12,317 nt of DNA from a virus (lineage: Duplodnaviria; Heunggongvirae; Uroviricota; Caudoviricetes), in IMG/VR virus record IMGVR_UViG_2802429246_000010, positions 1-12,317 of that record; one strand, given 5' to 3'. Both the position numbers and the translations under genes were made by a program. Below are positions 1 to 12,317 of the stretch, piece by piece. Under the pieces are notes generated by a model, which had not been told where the DNA came from, made no database searches, and saw nothing but the letters and a program-made list of their open reading frames with translations. Numbering within the stretch: the first letter of the stretch is position 1; every line of letters starts with the position of its first letter.

Positions 1-1632
1 ATGGTAACTCGGACAATGCAACAAAAGTATGATCGTGTTTTATCTGGCGAATCCCATCCATTCCCTGGCATATACGAGGCGGTTTCCGAACAACTCCTTT
101 TGCTCATCTTTAAGGCTCGTCAGCTATATCAGAATCCAGAATATCGCCCCTGGTTTGAAGAACAGCACAGAGTTCTCTCTGCATTACGTGCTAATACAGA
201 GCTCTTGAGAATATTTAGAGAACAAAGAAACGCGGAAGAACCAGAGCTTATTATTAAAGAATCTACATTACCCCTACTCACTAATTCTAATCTTACAGAT
301 GCGCTTAATATTATGTGCCATTTATACAATGGTTTTGATGAAGGAAATATCAGTCTGAAAACCTGGGGGGCGATGCAAGAGGTACAGACAACATCAACCT
401 TTATCAGCCCGGGACCGAGAACCTGGAAAACACCTGAACTGGCAAAGTTTGTAGGAGATGATTTATTTAATATTCTGACTGAATGTAAAGCCTGGAGTTC
501 ACCAATTCCAGCAGAAACCCGACAGGGCTATTGCCATCAGGATCTGTCTGTTGCACACTCCTGCACCTCAGAGTTACTGGCACACCTGAATCAATACCAT
601 GAAATTGATGAATCAGCAATACTTGCCAGAGTTATTGGTATGACGGTTAACGGATTCTACAAGAAAAATAATACAGACCTCCCAGAATGGCTATCCCCCT
701 TTAAAGAGGAACATAAAATATTCAGAGATTGTCTGGAGCAAAAGACCGAGGATGTAATCAGACTGAAAGAACAACTGTTGAAAACAGGACGTTCAGAATT
801 CGTGAATAATTTGTGTCGGGTCGCCAACTGGTATGAAATTAAGTCAATATACGATGAATATGTCCGTCTTTATGCCAATGAAATCATTGGTTGGTTCAAC
901 AAAACCATGGAATATTTTAAACCAACAGATTTTATCCGATATACATGGAAATTCGCAACAGTTACTCCAGGTAAAGAGACAGAAACCAAGCATACAACTG
1001 CATGGGAAAAGGATTATTGCCAGATAACTATACAACGTGATGAACTTCTGAGATTGATTCACACGAATACCCTTCAGGATGCAGTAATTTATCTTTGCCA
1101 TTGTCTGCAGAAGAAATACAAGAAATCATCCCAAAATGAGATAGAGTTTCCAGGAATAAAACCTCCGGCATCAGAGAGTGAAATTAATATAACAGATAGT
1201 TTTGAATTTTATTCTCTCCTGGAGCTCAGTAAAGATAATGAGAGACGGCTGGAAACATTTCAAAAATGGTATGAAAAAAATAAAGTTTTGTTAGAAAGTC
1301 ATAAACAAAAACGAACAGAGAAGATTGACGTTGCCGTACGACTTGTAGGGCTGAAAGCCTATGATCTGCATGAAGGGATTCCGGATAGTCCAAAACGAAA
1401 AGTTAAAGATGGCATAAATGAAGACATCAAAGCCGATACCAGTTTACGCCTGCCAAAGACAAATATAAGTGATACGTCGCTAAACCGTTATCGCCGCACT
1501 GTTAAGGAGATTATCAATAACGAAATCGACGCATTCCTGTTGGAACAGAAGAAAAAAAATAAAAGATTTCCCTACAGTGAAGATAGAGATGTGATTCGAC
1601 CTTTATGGGGAAAATGCCTGACCGGGCAGTAG
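1..1632 (+). CDS. hypothetical protein (543 aa), AT-rich accessory/cargo gene; ATG sits at position 1 so the true 5' end may lie beyond the window
   Basis: Uninterrupted 1632-nt ORF with coding-like amino-acid composition; noticeably more AT-rich than the rest of the window; followed by a hairpin terminator; no motif I can recognise by eye. Confidence 0.5.
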   Translation: MVTRTMQQKYDRVLSGESHPFPGIYEAVSEQLLLLIFKARQLYQNPEYRPWFEEQHRVLSALRANTELLRIFREQRNAEEPELIIKESTLPLLTNSNLTDALNIMCHLYNGFDEGNISLKTWGAMQEVQTTSTFISPGPRTWKTPELAKFVGDDLFNILTECKAWSSPIPAETRQGYCHQDLSVAHSCTSELLAHLNQYHEIDESAILARVIGMTVNGFYKKNNTDLPEWLSPFKEEHKIFRDCLEQKTEDVIRLKEQLLKTGRSEFVNNLCRVANWYEIKSIYDEYVRLYANEIIGWFNKTMEYFKPTDFIRYTWKFATVTPGKETETKHTTAWEKDYCQITIQRDELLRLIHTNTLQDAVIYLCHCLQKKYKKSSQNEIEFPGIKPPASESEINITDSFEFYSLLELSKDNERRLETFQKWYEKNKVLLESHKQKRTEKIDVAVRLVGLKAYDLHEGIPDSPKRKVKDGINEDIKADTSLRLPKTNISDTSLNRYRRTVKEIINNEIDAFLLEQKKKNKRFPYSEDRDVIRPLWGKCLTGQ

Positions 1633-1718: not shown

Positions 1719-2315
1719 TTATGCGGCTTTTCCATTAACAGATTCGGCCACAAGAACGACAGTGTGTTTGTTTCGCTCAGGATGTTCACTCCAGATTTCT
1801 GATTCCGGGATGCTTTCCCCGTCATAACTGATCCGTTCGCCATCAAACGGGTAATACCGTGCGGAATCAGTATCTAAAATAAACACCTTCAGATTCGTTG
1901 AACGACGCGCAATATGCTGCCAGAGAGCTTTTCCTCCTTCATATTGCTCGTTATCACTTAATAGTACAACGCCCGCTTTTGTGACTATCGTTTCATAAAC
2001 AAACGTTGCAAGACCAACATCGCGTACAGCTCCATCGACAACAATCCCTTCAATCTGAGCAACATCCTGTTCTTCCCAGAATTTCTGGACAAACACGCCT
2101 TCAAGTCGGGGACGACGCTGAAGCTCCAGAGTGGCAACAACCTTATGGCGAACATCACCATCAATAACAGAAGGTGCAGCTTCGATTACCGCAGCAAACG
2201 GAGTCTTTGGATCCCAGATGATCTGGTAAAGCACGCCCTGAATAGTTACTCCATCCAGTATCGAAAAACGACGGGCTACAGTAGCAGGGGAGTAAGACAT
2301 TGGAATTACAGCCAT
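1719..2315 (-). CDS. hypothetical protein (198 aa from ATG at 2313-2315; the track ORF extends to an upstream GTG at 2345)
   Basis: ATG at 2315 is preceded on the minus strand by AGAGGGGA about 9 nt upstream; coding-like composition; about 100 bp downstream of the integrase on the same strand; no recognisable domain. Confidence 0.5.
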   Translation of the reverse strand: MAVIPMSYSPATVARRFSILDGVTIQGVLYQIIWDPKTPFAAVIEAAPSVIDGDVRHKVVATLELQRRPRLEGVFVQKFWEEQDVAQIEGIVVDGAVRDVGLATFVYETIVTKAGVVLLSDNEQYEGGKALWQHIARRSTNLKVFILDTDSARYYPFDGERISYDGESIPESEIWSEHPERNKHTVVLVAESVNGKAA

Positions 2316-2444
2316 TTTAGAATCCCCTCTGAGTAATACAGGCACGAAAATTTACCTCAATAATTATAGTAAACAATACCAGAGCCAGGCGCATCAACAA
2401 TACTCATCAATTGTACTCAAGTCGTACAACGATCAGGAACGCCC

Positions 2445-3761
2445 TCACCTTCTACCAAACAGATTAACAACATTATTACCTGTCTGCTGTTGGTGGTTAT
2501 TAACCCGGTCCTCCCAGATCTCAAGTGCTCTGCGTTTTTCTGGCAAATAATCGTATCGATCATAATGTTTTGAACTGACATCGTTCAACGCATGATTTTG
2601 AATACGATCGCGGATTTCCTTACTGATTCCAGCTTCTCCCATTAACGTTTTACAGGTCCGACGTAAGTCACGTGCTGTAAAAATTTTAAAGTCAGGATTA
2701 CAAGCCCGGAAATACATGATAGCGCGAGCCAGACTGTCCGTACGAACCGGACGCTTACCATTAGTCGAAAGCGGGAAAATGTAAGGGCTCGATTTTTCTT
2801 TTGTTAACTCCTGCACACAAGATAATTCCTGTAATGCTGATTCAGTCAACGGTATCAAATGTTCTCGCTTATTTTTAGAGACATCCGCAGTCACCAGCAG
2901 CGTTTTTTGCTGAAAATCAACATCACACCACTGACTGGCGATCATTTCGAAGGGACGTTGCCCCCCGGTATAGATACAGAATCGGATCAAATGTTGCATC
3001 AATAATCCAACGTTGGTTGCTTCAGCAAAATGTTCCATTAGAAAACGCAACTCTTCGAGTGTCAGCCAGGTGTCACCGACTTTTTCAGCAGATGACTGTT
3101 TCGGTATCACTGATACCGGATTGGCCTCCAGCCCAAAAGTAATCCCTACACTTGTGTTCATCGGATCGTTATCAGCTTTCAGACCATAGTTAAATGCAGC
3201 CATCAGGTAAGAACGGATCCGGTTAGAGTGAACCACTGCACCGCGCTGAATGATCCCGGCCAGGATATGTTTAATCTGTCCGGAAGTCACATCTTTAGCT
3301 TTAGTCTCACGGGGGATCACTGTATAGCATTCATTTTCAAGGCGTTTCAGAACATCCTGCCATGTTCTCTTATTATCAATTTTCATTTTGTTAACATAAC
3401 CATGAATCAATGCTTCAAATGAGCCCTGTGATTGATGGAGTTGTATCCGCTGCTGTTCTGCAAGCTGTTGTCGCTCCAGTTCTGTCTGGGGATCCTTTCC
3501 TTCAATGAGCCAGGCACCATACTTTTTTGCCAGTTCATTCGCTGTAGCCAGTTTCATCTCAGGCCATATACCCAATTGAATGAATCTTTCTTTTTTCCCT
3601 TTTTCCACGTAATAGCGGAAATAGAAAATTTTGCTGCCAGAAGACTGAACTTTGATGCCAAGTCGTCCAGTGCCACGTTGAGAACTGTTGCTCCAGACAT
3701 AGAACGATGTCTTTTTTGCTTTCAATGCTCGGATAGCTGTTTCAGTTAGATTGACGGCCAT
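2445..3761 (-). CDS. int: site-specific tyrosine recombinase (phage integrase), P4-type with N-terminal arm-binding domain
   Basis: 438 aa; N-terminus (LTETAIRALK...GSKIFYFRYY...ERFIQLGIWPEMKLATA) fits the P4-integrase N-terminal domain pattern; C-terminus has the R...H..R...Y arrangement (ARDLRRT...HALND...HYDRYDY); AAGAGG RBS about 5 nt upstream of ATG at 3761; lies next to a tRNA-derived att core. Confidence 0.9.
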   Translation of the reverse strand: MAVNLTETAIRALKAKKTSFYVWSNSSQRGTGRLGIKVQSSGSKIFYFRYYVEKGKKERFIQLGIWPEMKLATANELAKKYGAWLIEGKDPQTELERQQLAEQQRIQLHQSQGSFEALIHGYVNKMKIDNKRTWQDVLKRLENECYTVIPRETKAKDVTSGQIKHILAGIIQRGAVVHSNRIRSYLMAAFNYGLKADNDPMNTSVGITFGLEANPVSVIPKQSSAEKVGDTWLTLEELRFLMEHFAEATNVGLLMQHLIRFCIYTGGQRPFEMIASQWCDVDFQQKTLLVTADVSKNKREHLIPLTESALQELSCVQELTKEKSSPYIFPLSTNGKRPVRTDSLARAIMYFRACNPDFKIFTARDLRRTCKTLMGEAGISKEIRDRIQNHALNDVSSKHYDRYDYLPEKRRALEIWEDRVNNHQQQTGNNVVNLFGRR

Positions 3762-3957: not shown

Positions 3958-4004
3958 GACTCATAATCGCTTGGTCGTTGGTTCAAACCCAACAGGGGCC
4001 ACCA
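3958..4004 (+). other. att core remnant: 47-nt 3' fragment of a tRNA-Ile(CAU)-like gene (anticodon loop through CCA), truncated at the 5' side
   Basis: GACTCATAATCGCTTGGTCGTTGGTTCAAACCCAACAGGGGCCACCA closely matches the 3' part of enterobacterial ileX/ileY-type tRNA as I recall it, with compensatory T-stem changes (GTTGG/CCAAC); the upstream 30 nt cannot form an acceptor or D arm, so this is not a complete tRNA. Confidence 0.65.
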
Positions 4005-4012
4005 TATCTATC

Positions 4013-4050
4013 AAGGGGTTACGTTAACAGCGTGACCCCTTCGTTTTTTC
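4013..4050 (+). terminator. rho-independent terminator immediately after the tRNA-derived core
   Basis: Stem AAGGGGT (4013-4019) / ACCCCTT (4035-4041), 15-nt loop, then CGTTTTTTC. Confidence 0.45.
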
Positions 4051-4330
4051 TAGGATACCTATAGGATACCGTGACAGAGTATAAGCAGGTATAAAAACAA
4101 CAAGTTACGCAACATCATACCTGTCATGAAACTTTAACTATCCGACATGATAGCTGGTCGATGATCACGGATAATCCGTTATGTGGATCCCCATATCGGC
4201 ATCAGACCCACCAGCGTGAAGCGTTTTTCATTTTTCGCGGGTATAAAAAATCGATGGGGCTGGCAGTCCGGAAGACGTCAGGTCACAGGGATTTGACCCG
4301 CCCCTCCCTGTGCATGAGCACAATAAGTAA

Positions 4331-4560: not shown

Positions 4561-5103
4561 TTACTTGTCTTTATCCGGCTGAAACTTATCAGGCACATTT
4601 CCGGTAGTTTCCATCAGATAATCGGACAGCATTCGCGGGATGTTTTCATCAAGTTTTGTGCATGCGTTACAGGCTCTGACAACTTCTTTTTTCAGGCCAT
4701 CCAGCATGACGGGGGTCATCTGTGGGAAGCTCCTTTGCATAGTAAGCGGCAGGCTGTCCATGATTGATGAAATCTGACTCGCCAGTTTTGAAAGCGCGTA
4801 CATGCAAAACTCTGTATCAATCACGTCACCGCGATCGCGCTCGTTTTTAAGTTCCTGCGCCTCCGCCTGTGCTGTCAGTAATCTGATCCTGACTCGTAAG
4901 AGTTCATCATCATCAATCTCGCCTTTGTCGTTTGTAAGCTGGCTAATTGCATTGTTAACCCTATTGTCTATCACGCTGGCAACATCATAAAACGCCTCAC
5001 GGCCTTTACGTTCAACGGGAGTCACTCCCCACTTGTCGAATGCTGTAGCACTTACCCGGCAGCTTTGCGCCATGGTTTTTTTGTTCATCAGGTGCGATTT
5101 CAT
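4561..5103 (-). CDS. terminase small subunit, lambda Nu1-like (N-terminal winged-HTH cosB-binding type)
   Basis: 180 aa from ATG at 5103 (lambda Nu1 is 181 aa); collinear similarity to lambda Nu1 along the whole length, e.g. LTAQAEAQELKNERD..DTEFCMYALSKLASQISSIMDSLPLTMQRSFP...LDENIPRMLSDYLMETTG against lambda LTRAQADAQELKNARD..ETAFCTFVLSRIAGEIASILDGLPLSVQRRFP...LDELIPGLLSEYIEQSG; a lambda-like cos lies directly upstream. Start is ambiguous (ATG 5103 or ATG 5085). Confidence 0.8.
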   Translation of the reverse strand: MKSHLMNKKTMAQSCRVSATAFDKWGVTPVERKGREAFYDVASVIDNRVNNAISQLTNDKGEIDDDELLRVRIRLLTAQAEAQELKNERDRGDVIDTEFCMYALSKLASQISSIMDSLPLTMQRSFPQMTPVMLDGLKKEVVRACNACTKLDENIPRMLSDYLMETTGNVPDKFQPDKDK

Positions 5104-5109
5104 CAATAT

Positions 5110-5300
5110 CCCAACTTGGTCAAGGTTTCAGGTTGGTGTGTTGGTGTTATCTTTCCCTTTTTATTCATGGAGATAGAGCAAACAACAAAACCACCACCAC
5201 CACCCTGAAAAAGCTCATAAATAGCGAAAAACCGCGAGGTCGCCGCCCCGTAGCCTACCGGATCGCCGGAAAGGACCCGCCAGCCAGAACGGGCCCTAAT
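5110..5300 (-). other. lambda-type cohesive-end site (cos); cosN 12-nt overhang sequence at 5237-5248, diverged cosB-side region 5110-5214
   Basis: Minus strand reads GGGCGGCGACCTCGCGGTTTTTCGCTATTTATGA (plus 5215-5248), matching the lambda left end GGGCGGCGACCTCGCGGGTTTTCGCTATTTATGA at 33 of 34 positions including the full cohesive-end 12-mer; sequence then diverges from lambda before the Nu1-like start. Confidence 0.8.
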
Positions 5301-5304
5301 TTCA

Positions 5305-5688
5305 TCAACCAATCAACTTATAGCGACCATCCCGTGCATTGCGGCGTACACGCTCAATCTTGAGGCATAGCGCCGCATCTGGCTTTTTTGGGACAGGTAC
5401 GCGGCAATATTCAGAAGCTCGAGGAATATTGTTTATCCAGTCGATCACTTCGCTTAAATACCAGGCCTTACGCCCTTCCGTAACCTGTACGCGTTCGGGG
5501 AACTCTCCGCGAGCCTCAAGGTTTAGCAATGTGCGACGGCTAAGGGTAGTAAGTTCCATCACCTGATTCATATCAACAAGGCGTTCACTTAAACGCATTT
5601 TGTCAGCAATAGCCTTTAATTCCTCTACTGCTGGATCCGGATACATCATTTCGGCAATTGGCTTAAGGTCATTGTAATGATTCTGCAT
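5305..5688 (-). CDS. AlpA/Vis-family HTH DNA-binding protein (127 aa, with an N-terminal extension of about 30 aa)
   Basis: Core RLVDMNQVMELTTLSRRTLLNLEARGEFPERVQVTEGRKAWYLSEVIDWINN fits the AlpA pattern; AGGGGGA RBS 5-6 nt upstream of ATG at 5688; stop lies about 57 bp from cosN. Confidence 0.7.
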   Translation of the reverse strand: MQNHYNDLKPIAEMMYPDPAVEELKAIADKMRLSERLVDMNQVMELTTLSRRTLLNLEARGEFPERVQVTEGRKAWYLSEVIDWINNIPRASEYCRVPVPKKPDAALCLKIERVRRNARDGRYKLIG

Positions 5689-5699
5689 TGTATCCCCCT

Positions 5700-6041
5700 T
5701 TACACACGAGCCAGCGGCTGAACAGAAATACCTGAGCCAACAAACGCGGCAACCTTTGCCGACAGTTCTTTTACAGACTCAGGCCAGTTCAGAGCATCAA
5801 CATTTAAAACACCTGTCTTATAAACCTGTGCCTGTGTTTTTTTCGCTGTGTCGATTTGTACAGCGGAAACATAAACCGCTTTGCCTGCGCTCGTTCCATC
5901 CCATACCACTAGCGCACCAGTTGCATCTTCCTGCATCAGTGGCGTAAACGCAGGTATTACCCCTTTATTGGCTGAAAATATCCCCAGCGTAGTAACCAGT
6001 GCTTCAGTGCCAGACATGAGTTCAGTGTAATGAGTAGCCAT
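5700..6041 (-). CDS. head decoration protein, lambda gpD-like
   Basis: 113 aa; TPLMQEDATGALVVWDGTSAGKAVYVSAVQIDTAKKTQAQVYKTGVLNVDALNWPE...AFVGSGISV aligns with lambda gpD [55 protein letters not shown]...AFAGTAISIV; AAGGGGGAG RBS overlaps the stop of the upstream capsid gene. Confidence 0.8.
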   Translation of the reverse strand: MATHYTELMSGTEALVTTLGIFSANKGVIPAFTPLMQEDATGALVVWDGTSAGKAVYVSAVQIDTAKKTQAQVYKTGVLNVDALNWPESVKELSAKVAAFVGSGISVQPLARV

Positions 6042-6050
6042 TGCTCCCCC

Positions 6051-7097
6051 TTAGCCAATGCGAACGGTAACAAAACGATTGATGCGGGCCGGTATTGGCT
6101 GTGGTGCTGAATGTGTCTGCACATATTCAATAGCCGGATCACCAGGCACAATATAGTTTTTCGGTGCAAGTTCGGCTTTAGTCAGCCCCATCCGAATTAG
6201 CTCCGGATCCTGAATACCGCCATAAGCGACAATCCCCTGAAGAGCCGTATTGCCAAGCACCATCAAATCAGGATCAAGGAAATATTTTTCAGTTCCGTCC
6301 TCGTCGGTATAACGCCCGCTGTAAACAACAATCGCAACATCGCCCATATACCCTTTAAAACTCACCGAATCACCAAGGTCTTTAAGGGCCGTTTCCAGTT
6401 CGGAATTAGAACCACGACGGGTATCCAGAGCCTCTTTTATCGCTCTGAATGAACGGTATTTCTTCCATACATTACCGCCCATAATGATGATATTAGTGAC
6501 GCCCTCACTAAATTCTGCGTAGCTCTCAATATCATCATTTGGATCAAAAGTTTCTTTATCCTTACCTGACCACTCAGCACCGCCAGACTGCGTGATAATA
6601 TTTTGTGGTTTTATATTCCAGTCCAGTTCATAACGTTCAATACCATCGCCCTCAATGATATTTTTCCCCGTTGTGATTGCCTGAACAGCAAGCCATTCAA
6701 TACGTGCACGTATAGCTTTAGCCTGATTTACAATCGCCTGTTTAACTTTAATATTACGCGCCCCAAAAGCATTGTATTGTTCAGGTGATACACCAGCAGG
6801 GCGCACAGCTAACTTATTTGGATCAATGCTGCTTTTCGGTTTCATATAGCCAGGGCGAATTGTTTTTGATTCGTATCCCTCATCTCGTGAAACTTTACTG
6901 CCCACCATAGGAGAGCAAAACGCCGCGATCGGGATATTTGGATCGTCGATCGTATCAAGAATAATGTCTCTCGATTCAAACATTACCGAGCGAGTGAAAA
7001 ACAAACTGGTAAACAACGCATTTAATTTTTTTTGCACATCTTCAGCATTAGCCACCTGCACAAGCTGTGTAGGCGAATATAAATCAACCATACTCAT
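6051..7097 (-). CDS. major capsid protein, lambda gpE-like (start at ATG 7097 or 7091; track ORF extends to 7178)
   Basis: Strong collinear similarity to lambda gpE, e.g. ITQSGGAEWSGKDKETFDPNDDIESYA...YRSFRAIKEALDTRRGSNSELETALKDLGDSVSFKGYMGDVAIVVYSG...MVLGNT...GDPA against lambda ITQSGGTEWSKRDKSTYDPTDDIEAYA...FRSFKAVKEKLDTRRGSNSELETAVKDLGKAVSYKGMYGDVAIVVYSG...MVLGNT...GDPA; N-terminus MSMVDLYSPTQL parallels lambda MSMYTTAQLL; AAAGAGG RBS just upstream. Confidence 0.85.
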   Translation of the reverse strand: MSMVDLYSPTQLVQVANAEDVQKKLNALFTSLFFTRSVMFESRDIILDTIDDPNIPIAAFCSPMVGSKVSRDEGYESKTIRPGYMKPKSSIDPNKLAVRPAGVSPEQYNAFGARNIKVKQAIVNQAKAIRARIEWLAVQAITTGKNIIEGDGIERYELDWNIKPQNIITQSGGAEWSGKDKETFDPNDDIESYAEFSEGVTNIIIMGGNVWKKYRSFRAIKEALDTRRGSNSELETALKDLGDSVSFKGYMGDVAIVVYSGRYTDEDGTEKYFLDPDLMVLGNTALQGIVAYGGIQDPELIRMGLTKAELAPKNYIVPGDPAIEYVQTHSAPQPIPARINRFVTVRIG

Positions 7098-7262
7098 CCT
7101 CTTTACATTCATTACAAATAATTGTGAATATATTCTATTACCGATGTCTGCTATGCGAATACATGCAACCAAGTGCAATGTTGTATAAAATATGCCGTGA
7201 CAACTTCAGTGCTGATAATTCGTGTTAATGTATTTACTTCCTTTGGTCGGGATTTATGTAGC

Positions 7263-7302
7263 ATGCCGGAAAATCTATTTTTTTCCGGCATCTTTTTGTT
7301 TG
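7263..7302 (+). terminator. strong hairpin plus T-tract (terminator-like, plus-strand orientation) upstream of the capsid gene
   Basis: 11-bp stem ATGCCGGAAAA (7263-7273) / TTTTCCGGCAT (7281-7291), 7-nt loop, then CTTTTTGTTTG. Orientation is antisense to the surrounding minus-strand genes, so its function is uncertain. Confidence 0.35.
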
Positions 7303-7375: not shown

Positions 7376-7732
7376 TCAGTGGCCTGCCCCTGCTGGCCTT
7401 TTTTTGCCGCCCGGTCGCGCCGTTCGCGCACTGATTACGCTGTCTGCGATAACCTGCCAGCCCTGCCGCGTTTCGCCGTTCTGGCCTGTCCACTGGCTTA
7501 CCTGCATGTTACCCGCCACGCTCACCAGTTCGCCTTTGTGGTGTTTTGCCAGTGCGTCGGCCTGTCTGCCAAACGCCAGGACGGATAACCACATCGTCGC
7601 CGTTCCGTCATCTGCCTGGCTGCACGGAAGGGGGACCGCCATACTAGCCATCGCCATTTGTGTACCCTTGCTGGTGGTCTTTAACTGCGGGTCAGCCACC
7701 AGCCGTCCGTAAGCCGCTATCTGTGCTGTCAT
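7376..7732 (-). CDS. single-stranded-DNA-binding-like OB-fold protein (118 aa) with a basic C-terminal tail
   Basis: Pattern YGRLVADPQL...TMWLSVLAFGRQADALAKHHKGELVSVAGNMQVSQWTGQNGETRQGWQVIADSV parallels E. coli SSB (VGNLGQDPEV...[52 protein letters not shown]); GGAGAG RBS; ATGA start/stop overlap with the upstream gene. Confidence 0.5.
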   Translation of the reverse strand: MTAQIAAYGRLVADPQLKTTSKGTQMAMASMAVPLPCSQADDGTATMWLSVLAFGRQADALAKHHKGELVSVAGNMQVSQWTGQNGETRQGWQVIADSVISARTARPGGKKRPAGAGH

Positions 7733-7971: not shown

Positions 7972-8011
7972 AGTTCAGATCTCAATTTTTCGTATATATA
8001 TACAAAACAGT

Positions 8012-8334
8012 GCGGGTTATGCGGGTTAGCGGGTTAGCGGGTTATCTTCGCTTGCTAAGTATTTTTTATTCATTAATATCAATACATTACAAAATTAACT
8101 GTTTACTGTTTAGCCGTGGCGTAACCCGCAAAATGCTCAAAATAACCCGCAAACGGGGTTTTTTCTGCGGGTTACGCGTGGCTGTTTGCTGTCACTTCCT
8201 GTTATTCATCTGCGGGTTATAATCGCACTTTTGTGGGTTATAACTGCCGTTTTGCGGGTTACGTGCGGGTTATTGATTTCCTTTTTATTCATGCAGTTAA
8301 TGCACTTATACACAGAGTAACCCACATAACCCGC
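8012..8334. repeat. iteron-type replication origin: about 13 copies of GCGGGTTA (both orientations) flanking an AT-rich unwinding stretch
   Basis: Four tandem copies at 8012-8044; reverse copies TAACCCGC at 8122-8129, 8143-8150, 8327-8334; forward copies at 8167-8174, 8212-8219, 8254-8261, 8265-8272; variants GTGGGTTA (8233-8240) and TAACCCAC (8318-8325); AT-rich segment 8050-8110; located immediately downstream of the replication gene. Confidence 0.75.
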
Positions 8335-8357
8335 AACTTTTCACCTCACACAGGGGG

Positions 8358-12107: not shown

Positions 12108-12317
12108 TTACACCGTCTGCGTTCTGCGAGTGGATGCAAGATAAGCATCGAGATCAGTGCGCATATACAGCACTTTGCGCCCCAGCTTATGGAAAGGGAT
12201 TTTTACCTTGCCAGTACAGGCCCAGTTCGCCAGCGTTTGATTGTTAACGCCAAGGTAGGCAGCAGCTTCAGCACGTGTAAGGCGGTCAGTTGATAAATCA
12301 GATTTCTTTAAATTCAT
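12108..12317 (-). CDS. excisionase/AlpA-family HTH DNA-binding protein (69 aa; start codon at the window edge, so it may extend upstream)
   Basis: LTRAEAAAYLGVNNQTLANW...GKVKIPFHKLGRKVLYMRTDLDAYLA matches the excisionase-type HTH pattern; position and orientation suggest an int-alpA-type pair with an integrase beyond the window edge. Confidence 0.7.
   Translation of the reverse strand: MNLKKSDLSTDRLTRAEAAAYLGVNNQTLANWACTGKVKIPFHKLGRKVLYMRTDLDAYLASTRRTQTV

Follow-up and report, generated by a model that had tools for sequence, protein, structure and literature searches.

HTH127, a 127-residue winged-helix protein of the AlpA/Xis type encoded in the capsid operon of a phage satellite, is proposed to oligomerise head-to-tail on an array of phased repeats at the promoter of this operon and to regulate its expression, probably as an activator. 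We give this reading a probability of about 0.5. From the anatomy of the locus and from comparative genomics we infer the binding of the array, the sign of the regulation and the role of the helical extensions that flank the winged helix.

The window, i.e. the complete stretch of 12,317 nucleotides that was analysed, matches the chromosome of E. coli A36 (NZ_CP028739.1) at 100% identity and spans most of an island of ~11 kb, in which every gene is located on the minus strand. Judged by its gene content, the island is a Gram-negative PICI-type phage satellite of E. coli A36: it combines an integrase gene, an alpA-like gene, a primase gene with a downstream iteron origin, unidirectional genes, a λ-type cos, and genes for capsid and decoration proteins. 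The layout is of the same type as that of EcCICFT073, which also possesses capsid and decoration genes, c1499 and c1500 (PMC6092414). In island order, the features are as follows:

Just outside the right edge of the window, minus strand: tyrosine integrase gene and one hypothetical gene.
12108–12317, minus strand: 69-aa alpA-like gene of the integration module with an HTH_17/TIGR01764 excisionase-family domain.
After the 12108–12317 gene, minus strand: Icd-like gene, DUF4222 gene and DUF927 primase gene.
8011–8337, no strand assigned: origin iterons TGCGGGTTA / TAACCCGCA, ~10 copies, downstream of the primase gene.
7376–7732 and upstream, minus strand: SSB gene, frameshifted (RefSeq annotation, strain A36).
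6051–7091, minus strand: major capsid protein, λ gpE family (Pfam Phage_cap_E, 3.6e-41; RefSeq start).
5700–6041, minus strand: head decoration protein, λ gpD family (Pfam HDPD, 2.3e-15).
5305–5688, minus strand: HTH127, ATG start (Pfam Phage_AlpA).
5209–5280, minus strand: cos with cosQ, cosN (5237–5248) and an I2-like block, almost identical to λ.
4561–5106, minus strand: satellite TerS, full-length Nu1 homolog (Phage_Nu1 profile match).

E. coli 2015C-3163 (L002) and other close relatives have an uninterrupted SSB gene. The minus-strand sequence of cosN is GGGCGGCGACCT; its flanks from −32 to +40 almost match λ cos, and the cosB side has diverged. The satellite TerS encoded behind cos shares 37% identity with λ Nu1 over the entire length, C-terminus included. 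On the cosB side, at 5179–5204 (minus strand; +45 to +70 from cosN), a (GGT)4–5 element followed by a T/G-rich run occupies the position of λ R3. The (GGT)4–5 element is conserved in islands with this type of TerS (the window, L005 and L007), and EcCICFT073 has the complementary (ACC)n in place of (GGT)n; a Kluyvera island without TerS (L006) retains a λ-like R3 sequence. The 5179–5204 element may be the site recognised by the satellite TerS or by Rpp (redirecting phage packaging; PMC6739421).

At its far end (3959–4023) the island shares a 65-bp direct repeat of 83% identity with positions 22364–22428 of L001; the two copies bracket the island and look like the 3′ part of a tRNA (GGTTCAAACCC...CCA). 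No intact tRNA was detected in the window by ARAGORN. The integrase encoded at 2445–3761, immediately past this repeat, is that of a neighbouring element, which carries YagK/YfjJ and inovirus Gp2-family genes in L001, and the two adjoining islands look like a tandem array at one site. The large open reading frames of the neighbouring island, 1–1632 (plus strand, 543 aa) and 1719–2345 (minus strand, 208 aa), gave no match in PADLOC, and the 208-aa protein gave none in Pfam.

In the initial annotation, the gene at 5305–5688 had been described as encoding an AlpA-family protein with an N-terminal extension of about 30 residues, coupled to the capsid and decoration genes and ending about 57 bp from cosN, and all of these points were borne out. 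Residues 36–85 match Pfam Phage_AlpA (PF05930) with E = 1.4e-8 and 34.9 bits against a cutoff of 21. The N-terminal extension comprises ~34 residues and is accompanied by a second extension of ~40 residues at the C-terminus, both of them conserved, and the stop codon is located 56 nt from cosN. The major capsid gene opens the operon and is separated from the decoration gene by a gap of 9 nt, followed by 11 nt between the decoration stop codon (5700–5702) and the HTH127 ATG (5688), a spacer with the strong Shine-Dalgarno sequence AGGGGGA. About 100 homologs, almost all 127 residues long, are present in the databases, and the gene is found in 408 of 5426 complete E. coli genomes. The dN/dS ratio amounts to 0.01–0.07 in the winged-helix core and 0.11–0.29 in the extensions. 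Given these homologs, the occurrence in E. coli and the low dN/dS, the open reading frame is a real conserved gene under purifying selection and not a product of chance. In the literature searched, this gene is not described.

Among 1.84 billion cluster representatives at 50% identity, matches to the HTH127 profile extend past the core in three clusters, and all others are limited to positions about 31–95. An NCBIfam search with HTH127 yielded nothing, including no match to TIGR01764 ('excise'), to which the 12108–12317 gene does match; an Rfam search gave no match, and PADLOC just two sub-significant hits to winged-helix domains (E = 0.003–0.005). Among the PDB chains, sequence searches identified 8c3t, an AlpA-family protein deposited as the excisionase of GIsul2, as the sole relative (E = 1.6e-10, residues 35–95), and phmmer against the PDB chain sequences at E-values up to 10 added one chance match and nothing else. 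In the AlphaFold2 model calculated from a diversified alignment (mean pLDDT 79, core >90; a shallow-alignment model with a pLDDT of 54 was set aside), HTH127 is predicted to consist of N-terminal helices at residues 8–15 and 19–33, a canonical winged helix-turn-helix (wHTH) of α1, α2, β-hairpin wing and α3 at residues 40–86 (core ~35–88), and a Pro-rich linker leading into a basic C-terminal helix at residues 105–119. The closest structural relatives are 8c3t, RdfS, BldC and phage Xis proteins. Compared to the AlpA/Xis-type wHTH represented by 8c3t, HTH127 is double the usual size, carries conserved helical extensions on both sides, and neither adjoins an integrase nor is tied to any att site: in contrast to a small single-domain protein (about 60–80 aa) beside the integrase, its gene belongs to the capsid operon and, in the full record, is separated from the integrase gene of the island by about 7.5 kb.

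The view that HTH127 is a paralog of the 12108–12317 gene product, taken in the initial annotation, holds at the level of superfamily and fold, but the two proteins show no BLASTP similarity and fall into different Pfam families (HTH_17 for the latter, not Phage_AlpA). In the full record, one gene intervenes between the 12108–12317 gene and the integrase gene. A comparison with characterised AlpA and Rpp proteins, suggested in the same place, gave 33–38% identity over about 50–65 residues to the 62-aa AlpA of EcCICFT073 and to int-side relatives, and no similarity to Rpp.

Between the SSB gene and the capsid gene, the following elements are found:

7263–7291, minus strand: hairpin with an 11-bp stem, between the SSB gene and the capsid operon.
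7153–7188, minus strand: candidate operator of four hexamers with an exact 10-bp period, 62–97 nt upstream of the capsid ATG.
7132–7159, minus strand: σ70-like promoter (TTCGCA, 16 nt, TAGAAT), a consensus match only.

The resulting order is hairpin, array and promoter, capsid, decoration, HTH127. Relatives have equivalent hairpins at this position, those of L093 and L094 being accompanied by T-runs. The array reads TTATAC aaca TTGCAC ttgg TTGCAT gtat TCGCAT, and its last hexamer overlaps the −35 element of the σ70-like promoter of the E. coli type. All lineages examined have a phased array with the consensus TTRYAY, often in the form ATTGCAC, ahead of the capsid gene. Scored against four TTRYAY hexamers, the window reaches 23/24, which none of 5000 shuffles attains, in a test that is partly circular, as the motif was derived from the same sequences. 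Scores of 23–24/24, likewise attained by 0/5000 shuffles, characterise the window, L005, L006, L007, L146 and L292, i.e. lineages from E. coli, Kosakonia, Kluyvera and Superficieibacter together with the IMG/VR lineage L146 and the lineage at 50% identity, L292. The array is weaker yet detectable in Cedecea, Scandinavium and a 114-aa E. coli variant; L008, L093 and L011 score 20/24, which 3–19 of 5000 shuffles reach. In Buttiauxella and L296 it is marginal, and the four-hexamer scores of L094 and L296, the most divergent members, are reached by 273 and 336 of 5000 shuffles, respectively.

Between genera, the adjacent gene has reached saturation at synonymous sites (pS 0.6–1.0) and the intergenic DNA around the array is unalignable, and still the phased hexamers are retained even in relatives with 50% protein identity. 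Because of this saturation and the lack of alignable surroundings, the hexamers are, on comparative grounds, a footprint of selection. Repeat pairs are present in 78/80 and triples in 76/80 HTH127 loci, a sample of 80 near-identical IMG/VR copies in which most loci are close relatives, and the array is found in 0/80 sister loci that carry the gene c1501 instead, EcCICFT073 included. The promoter segment of the E. coli type occurs in 366 genomes, which is also the number of genomes carrying at least 80% of the HTH127 gene. The array is nearly always unique within 8–16 kb of the island and its flanks, and no array was found upstream of the integration-side alpA gene or near cos.

The form of the repeats is not diagnostic by itself. 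Many unrelated IMG/VR contigs (L095–L172) contain tandem TTGCAY arrays of 10-bp period, for instance four to six copies of TTGCACACAT, so a scan of IMG/VR with the motif was swamped by unrelated arrays; 10-bp TTGCAY repeats are a common form of operator or iteron, and the motif without its context identifies nothing. Every capsid-adjacent match of the scan, however, proved to be an HTH127 module. Several known site types were compared with the array and rejected. The E. coli repeats fit the box of λ CII and P22 C1 (TTGC-N6-TTGC), but TTATAC, TTAGAC and TTGTAC of the relatives do not, and the spacing from the array to the best −10 element is off by 4 nt from the CII geometry. For a σ54 promoter (TGGCAC-N5-TTGCA) the GG is absent and the spacing is wrong. 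Origin iterons differ in sequence, being represented by TGCGGGTTA at 8011–8337 in the window and by GTGTTCACC in L093, where a terminator separates them from the array. Residue 52 of the recognition helix (R, G or Q) shows suggestive covariation with hexamer positions 3–4 in Cedecea (L008) and L296, but a correspondence is not claimed, since L292 mixes TTGCAC and TTATAC under one protein. An extra pair, TTATAC-ctgc-TTATAC, is situated at 4079–4094 (minus strand), 60–130 bp inside the att repeat; it adjoins two AGGATACC direct repeats and recurs only in islands with an A36-type integrase (L018, L033). Pairs of the TTATAC-N4-TTATAC type are expected by chance at ~0.18 per window, and the extra pair may reflect chance, integrase arm sites or a second HTH127 site.

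Comparison of the loci revealed which parts of the island accompany HTH127 and which do not. The order capsid-decoration-HTH127-cos is kept in Kosakonia, Kluyvera, Superficieibacter, Cedecea, Scandinavium and Buttiauxella, and also in two metagenomic lineages at ~50% identity. HTH127 proteins that are 95–100% identical are paired with at least six integrase lineages, either of the A36 type or with 24% to 86% identity to the EcCICFT073 integrase, and with two types of AlpA, the int-side regulator being Phage_AlpA or HTH_17. The primase is of several types. Some of the islands are chromosomal and others are inserted in a prophage portal or capsid gene, a position known as the helper-embedded configuration (PMC10111431). 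Behind cos follows this TerS, a distant TerS (37–39% identity), a truncated TerS with defence-like cargo, or nothing recognisable, and a match to RppA was found by tblastn in 0/80 HTH127 loci.

An unrelated 137-aa gene, c1501 (32083–32496 of L004), fills the slot between the decoration gene and cos in EcCICFT073 and 80 relatives; it encodes an acidic protein without a match in Pfam, NCBIfam or PADLOC. The capsid protein of this sister module is 54–61% identical, and behind cos the c1501-type islands carry this TerS type in 38/80 and RppA in 20/80 cases. In these islands, a PerC gene is followed by a capsid-operon promoter close to consensus (TTGCTC, 16 nt, TATAAT). As judged from these loci, the gene in the slot tracks the capsid lineage and not the choice of integrase, cos or TerS/Rpp. 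On the reading proposed here, promoter array, capsid, decoration and HTH127 make up one cassette that moves from satellite to satellite independently of the modules for integration, replication and packaging specificity. Co-occurrence of array and HTH127, which are 1.5 kb apart in a cassette of ~2 kb, could also be plain linkage.

The region directly behind cos appears to be a hotspot for cargo. In L055 (8630–10653) a truncated Nu1-like fragment is followed by two unannotated open reading frames of 193 and 403 aa on the opposite strand, L008 (8681–9829) contains an open reading frame with an apparent N-terminal TIR-type motif, and L012 (6806–7567) an abortive-infection family gene according to the RefSeq annotation.

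No DNA-binding protein other than HTH127 is shared by all loci with the array, as integrase, AlpA type, primase and TerS vary. This exclusivity, combined with the nearly invariant recognition domain and with precedents of the same fold, leads us to propose HTH127 as the protein that binds the array and controls the operon. Outside of E. coli, no equivalent consensus σ70 promoter is found between the array and the capsid gene, which fits an activator-dependent promoter. In the E. coli type, the overlap of the last repeat with the −35 element would fit repression as well, and HTH127 may exert negative autoregulation of the capsid operon. The further TTATAC-N4-TTATAC pair near the att end of the A36-type island is another point against the proposal.

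Other roles of HTH127 have to be weighed against that of a regulator of its own operon. HTH127 might be a recombination directionality factor of the island, or a stand-in for the Xis of a helper prophage, as reported for alpA_1 of EcCIMP1. However, repeat pairs near att ends are absent outside the A36 type, nearly identical HTH127 proteins occur in islands of diverse integrase lineages with different attachment sites, including prophage portal and capsid genes, and the gene is located far from int and linked to the capsid lineage; moreover, TIGR01764 is matched by the int-side gene instead. We regard this role as improbable. The constant association with the capsid lineage across varying integrases and TerS proteins argues against an excisionase and also against functions specific for cos or terminase, among them a packaging accessory of Rpp-like or gpFI-like character that is matched to the satellite capsid and binds cos or the terminase of helper or satellite. 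Rpp is a cos-adjacent wHTH protein of the same island class. The DNA between the HTH127 stop codon and cosQ is not conserved and no TTRYAY array is present near cos, cos is equally conserved in EcCICFT073, where c1501 fills the slot of HTH127, and HTH127 persists with a full-length TerS or with none, none of its 80 loci having an RppA match. HTH127 has no sequence similarity to Rpp, Nu1 or FI. A packaging role is considered improbable, and the closeness of the gene to cos looks incidental, as the capsid operon simply ends there. Of the repurposing suggested in the initial annotation, the 'cos-proximal DNA-binding factor' is not supported, while the 'late-gene activator' gains support from an operator-like array at the protein's own capsid promoter, present only in HTH127 modules, and repurposing as such is indirectly favoured by the at least six integrase lineages.

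Satellites often carry regulators that are directed at the helper, for example P4 Delta and PLE CapR. HTH127 might act in this way on genes of helper phage or host, by interference or hijacking, with the array being bound by a host, helper or AlpA factor, and a conserved target in the helper would be compatible with the very strongly conserved recognition helix seen across hosts. However, repeat pairs were found neither in 50 kb of a λ-like helper prophage (L003) nor in the prophage flanks of helper-embedded islands, tblastn detected no HTH127 homolog in 50,697 phage records, and AlpA, as a binder of the array, differs in type among the array-bearing islands. A role in trans is therefore considered unlikely. 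The true binder of the array could also be a host factor, such as a response regulator of the OmpR type, which likewise uses 10-bp direct repeats, or a factor of the helper phage.

The proposed regulation of the capsid operon by HTH127 has parallels in Xis/MerR-like wHTH proteins. P2 Cox binds head-to-tail to direct repeats one helical turn apart and regulates promoters. BldC (PMC5859096) and RdfS (PMC11963761) likewise oligomerise head-to-tail on such repeats and regulate promoters, with an extra N-terminal helix mediating the oligomerisation of RdfS. HTH127 has a fold of this kind, and a phased array of four repeats is present at the promoter of its operon, to which HTH127 would bind in a comparable manner, but the three proteins have no sequence-level relation to HTH127 and lack its C-terminal helix. 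AlpA, the helper-induced master activator of the PICI cycle, is known to activate its own promoter (PMC6092414), which is the logic proposed here for HTH127, and the AlpA of EcCICFT073 is a small wHTH protein like HTH127. In contrast to HTH127 in the capsid operon, however, the PICI alpA gene is located just downstream of int, and the alpA promoter region does not contain the candidate operator of HTH127. While typical PICIs of E. coli encode one AlpA, EcCIMP1 also has a second AlpA-family gene at its far end, alpA_1, which lies on the opposite strand, is Xis-like and can partly replace the excisionase of the helper, being dispensable for excision of the island itself (PMC11773190). Its product resembles the helper Xis (TorI-like), and the island is without capsid genes (PMC11773190); unlike alpA_1, HTH127 is co-oriented with the island, belongs to the capsid operon and has no phage homolog.

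In a screen of the post-origin genes of EcCICFT073, an island without HTH127, only rppA blocked λ (PMC6739421). Rpp is encoded after cos in the position of TerS, where it mimics the DNA-binding domain of TerS with an N-terminal wHTH and forms a heterodimer with the helper TerS, whereas HTH127 is encoded before cos. A search of the PDB chains gave no sequence match between the deposited RppC chain and HTH127, and a match to Phage_Nu1, the profile of λ TerS, is absent in HTH127 and present in the neighbouring 4561–5106 gene. The AlpA of P. aeruginosa is a Q-like antiterminator of eight helices, in which an N-terminal segment forms a ring and an HTH is located at the C-terminus (PMC9371919); an analogy to this protein was discarded, because it has a different architecture, is unrelated to HTH127 and shares the name alone.

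Taken as a mechanism, the proposal is that several HTH127 copies, arranged head-to-tail along a single DNA face, occupy the four TTRYAY repeats phased by 10 bp. Protein-protein contacts would be provided by the N-terminal helices, the C-terminal helix, or both. The bound repeats would overlap the weak capsid promoter or immediately precede it, and HTH127 most likely activates this promoter, and since the regulator is the product of the third gene of the operon that it would control, positive feedback would result.

HTH127 and its phased operator may further constitute a capsid cassette that is self-contained and under positive autoregulation. The regulator would have arisen from an excisionase-type protein that gained oligomerisation helices, chromosomal and helper-embedded islands would exchange the cassette as one unit whatever their modules for integration, replication and packaging specificity, and no dedicated late-gene regulator of Gram-negative phage satellites would have been described before it; this wider picture is put forward tentatively and is rather less probable than not. 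For Gram-negative PICIs, the timing of capsid and decoration expression is not described in the literature searched, which deals only with AlpA as the early activator and with Rpp as the packaging factor. Through its clear candidate operator, a regulator specific to the module would make late-gene control in Gram-negative satellites directly testable. If the proposal is true, HTH127 would be another protein of the excisionase fold turned into a pure transcription factor. In a large survey of helper-embedded PICIs, all Phage_AlpA and HTH_17 genes are listed under 'Integration' (PMC10111431). For the annotation of satellites, a match to the 'AlpA family' should neither be referred automatically to the integration module nor be counted as the master regulator.
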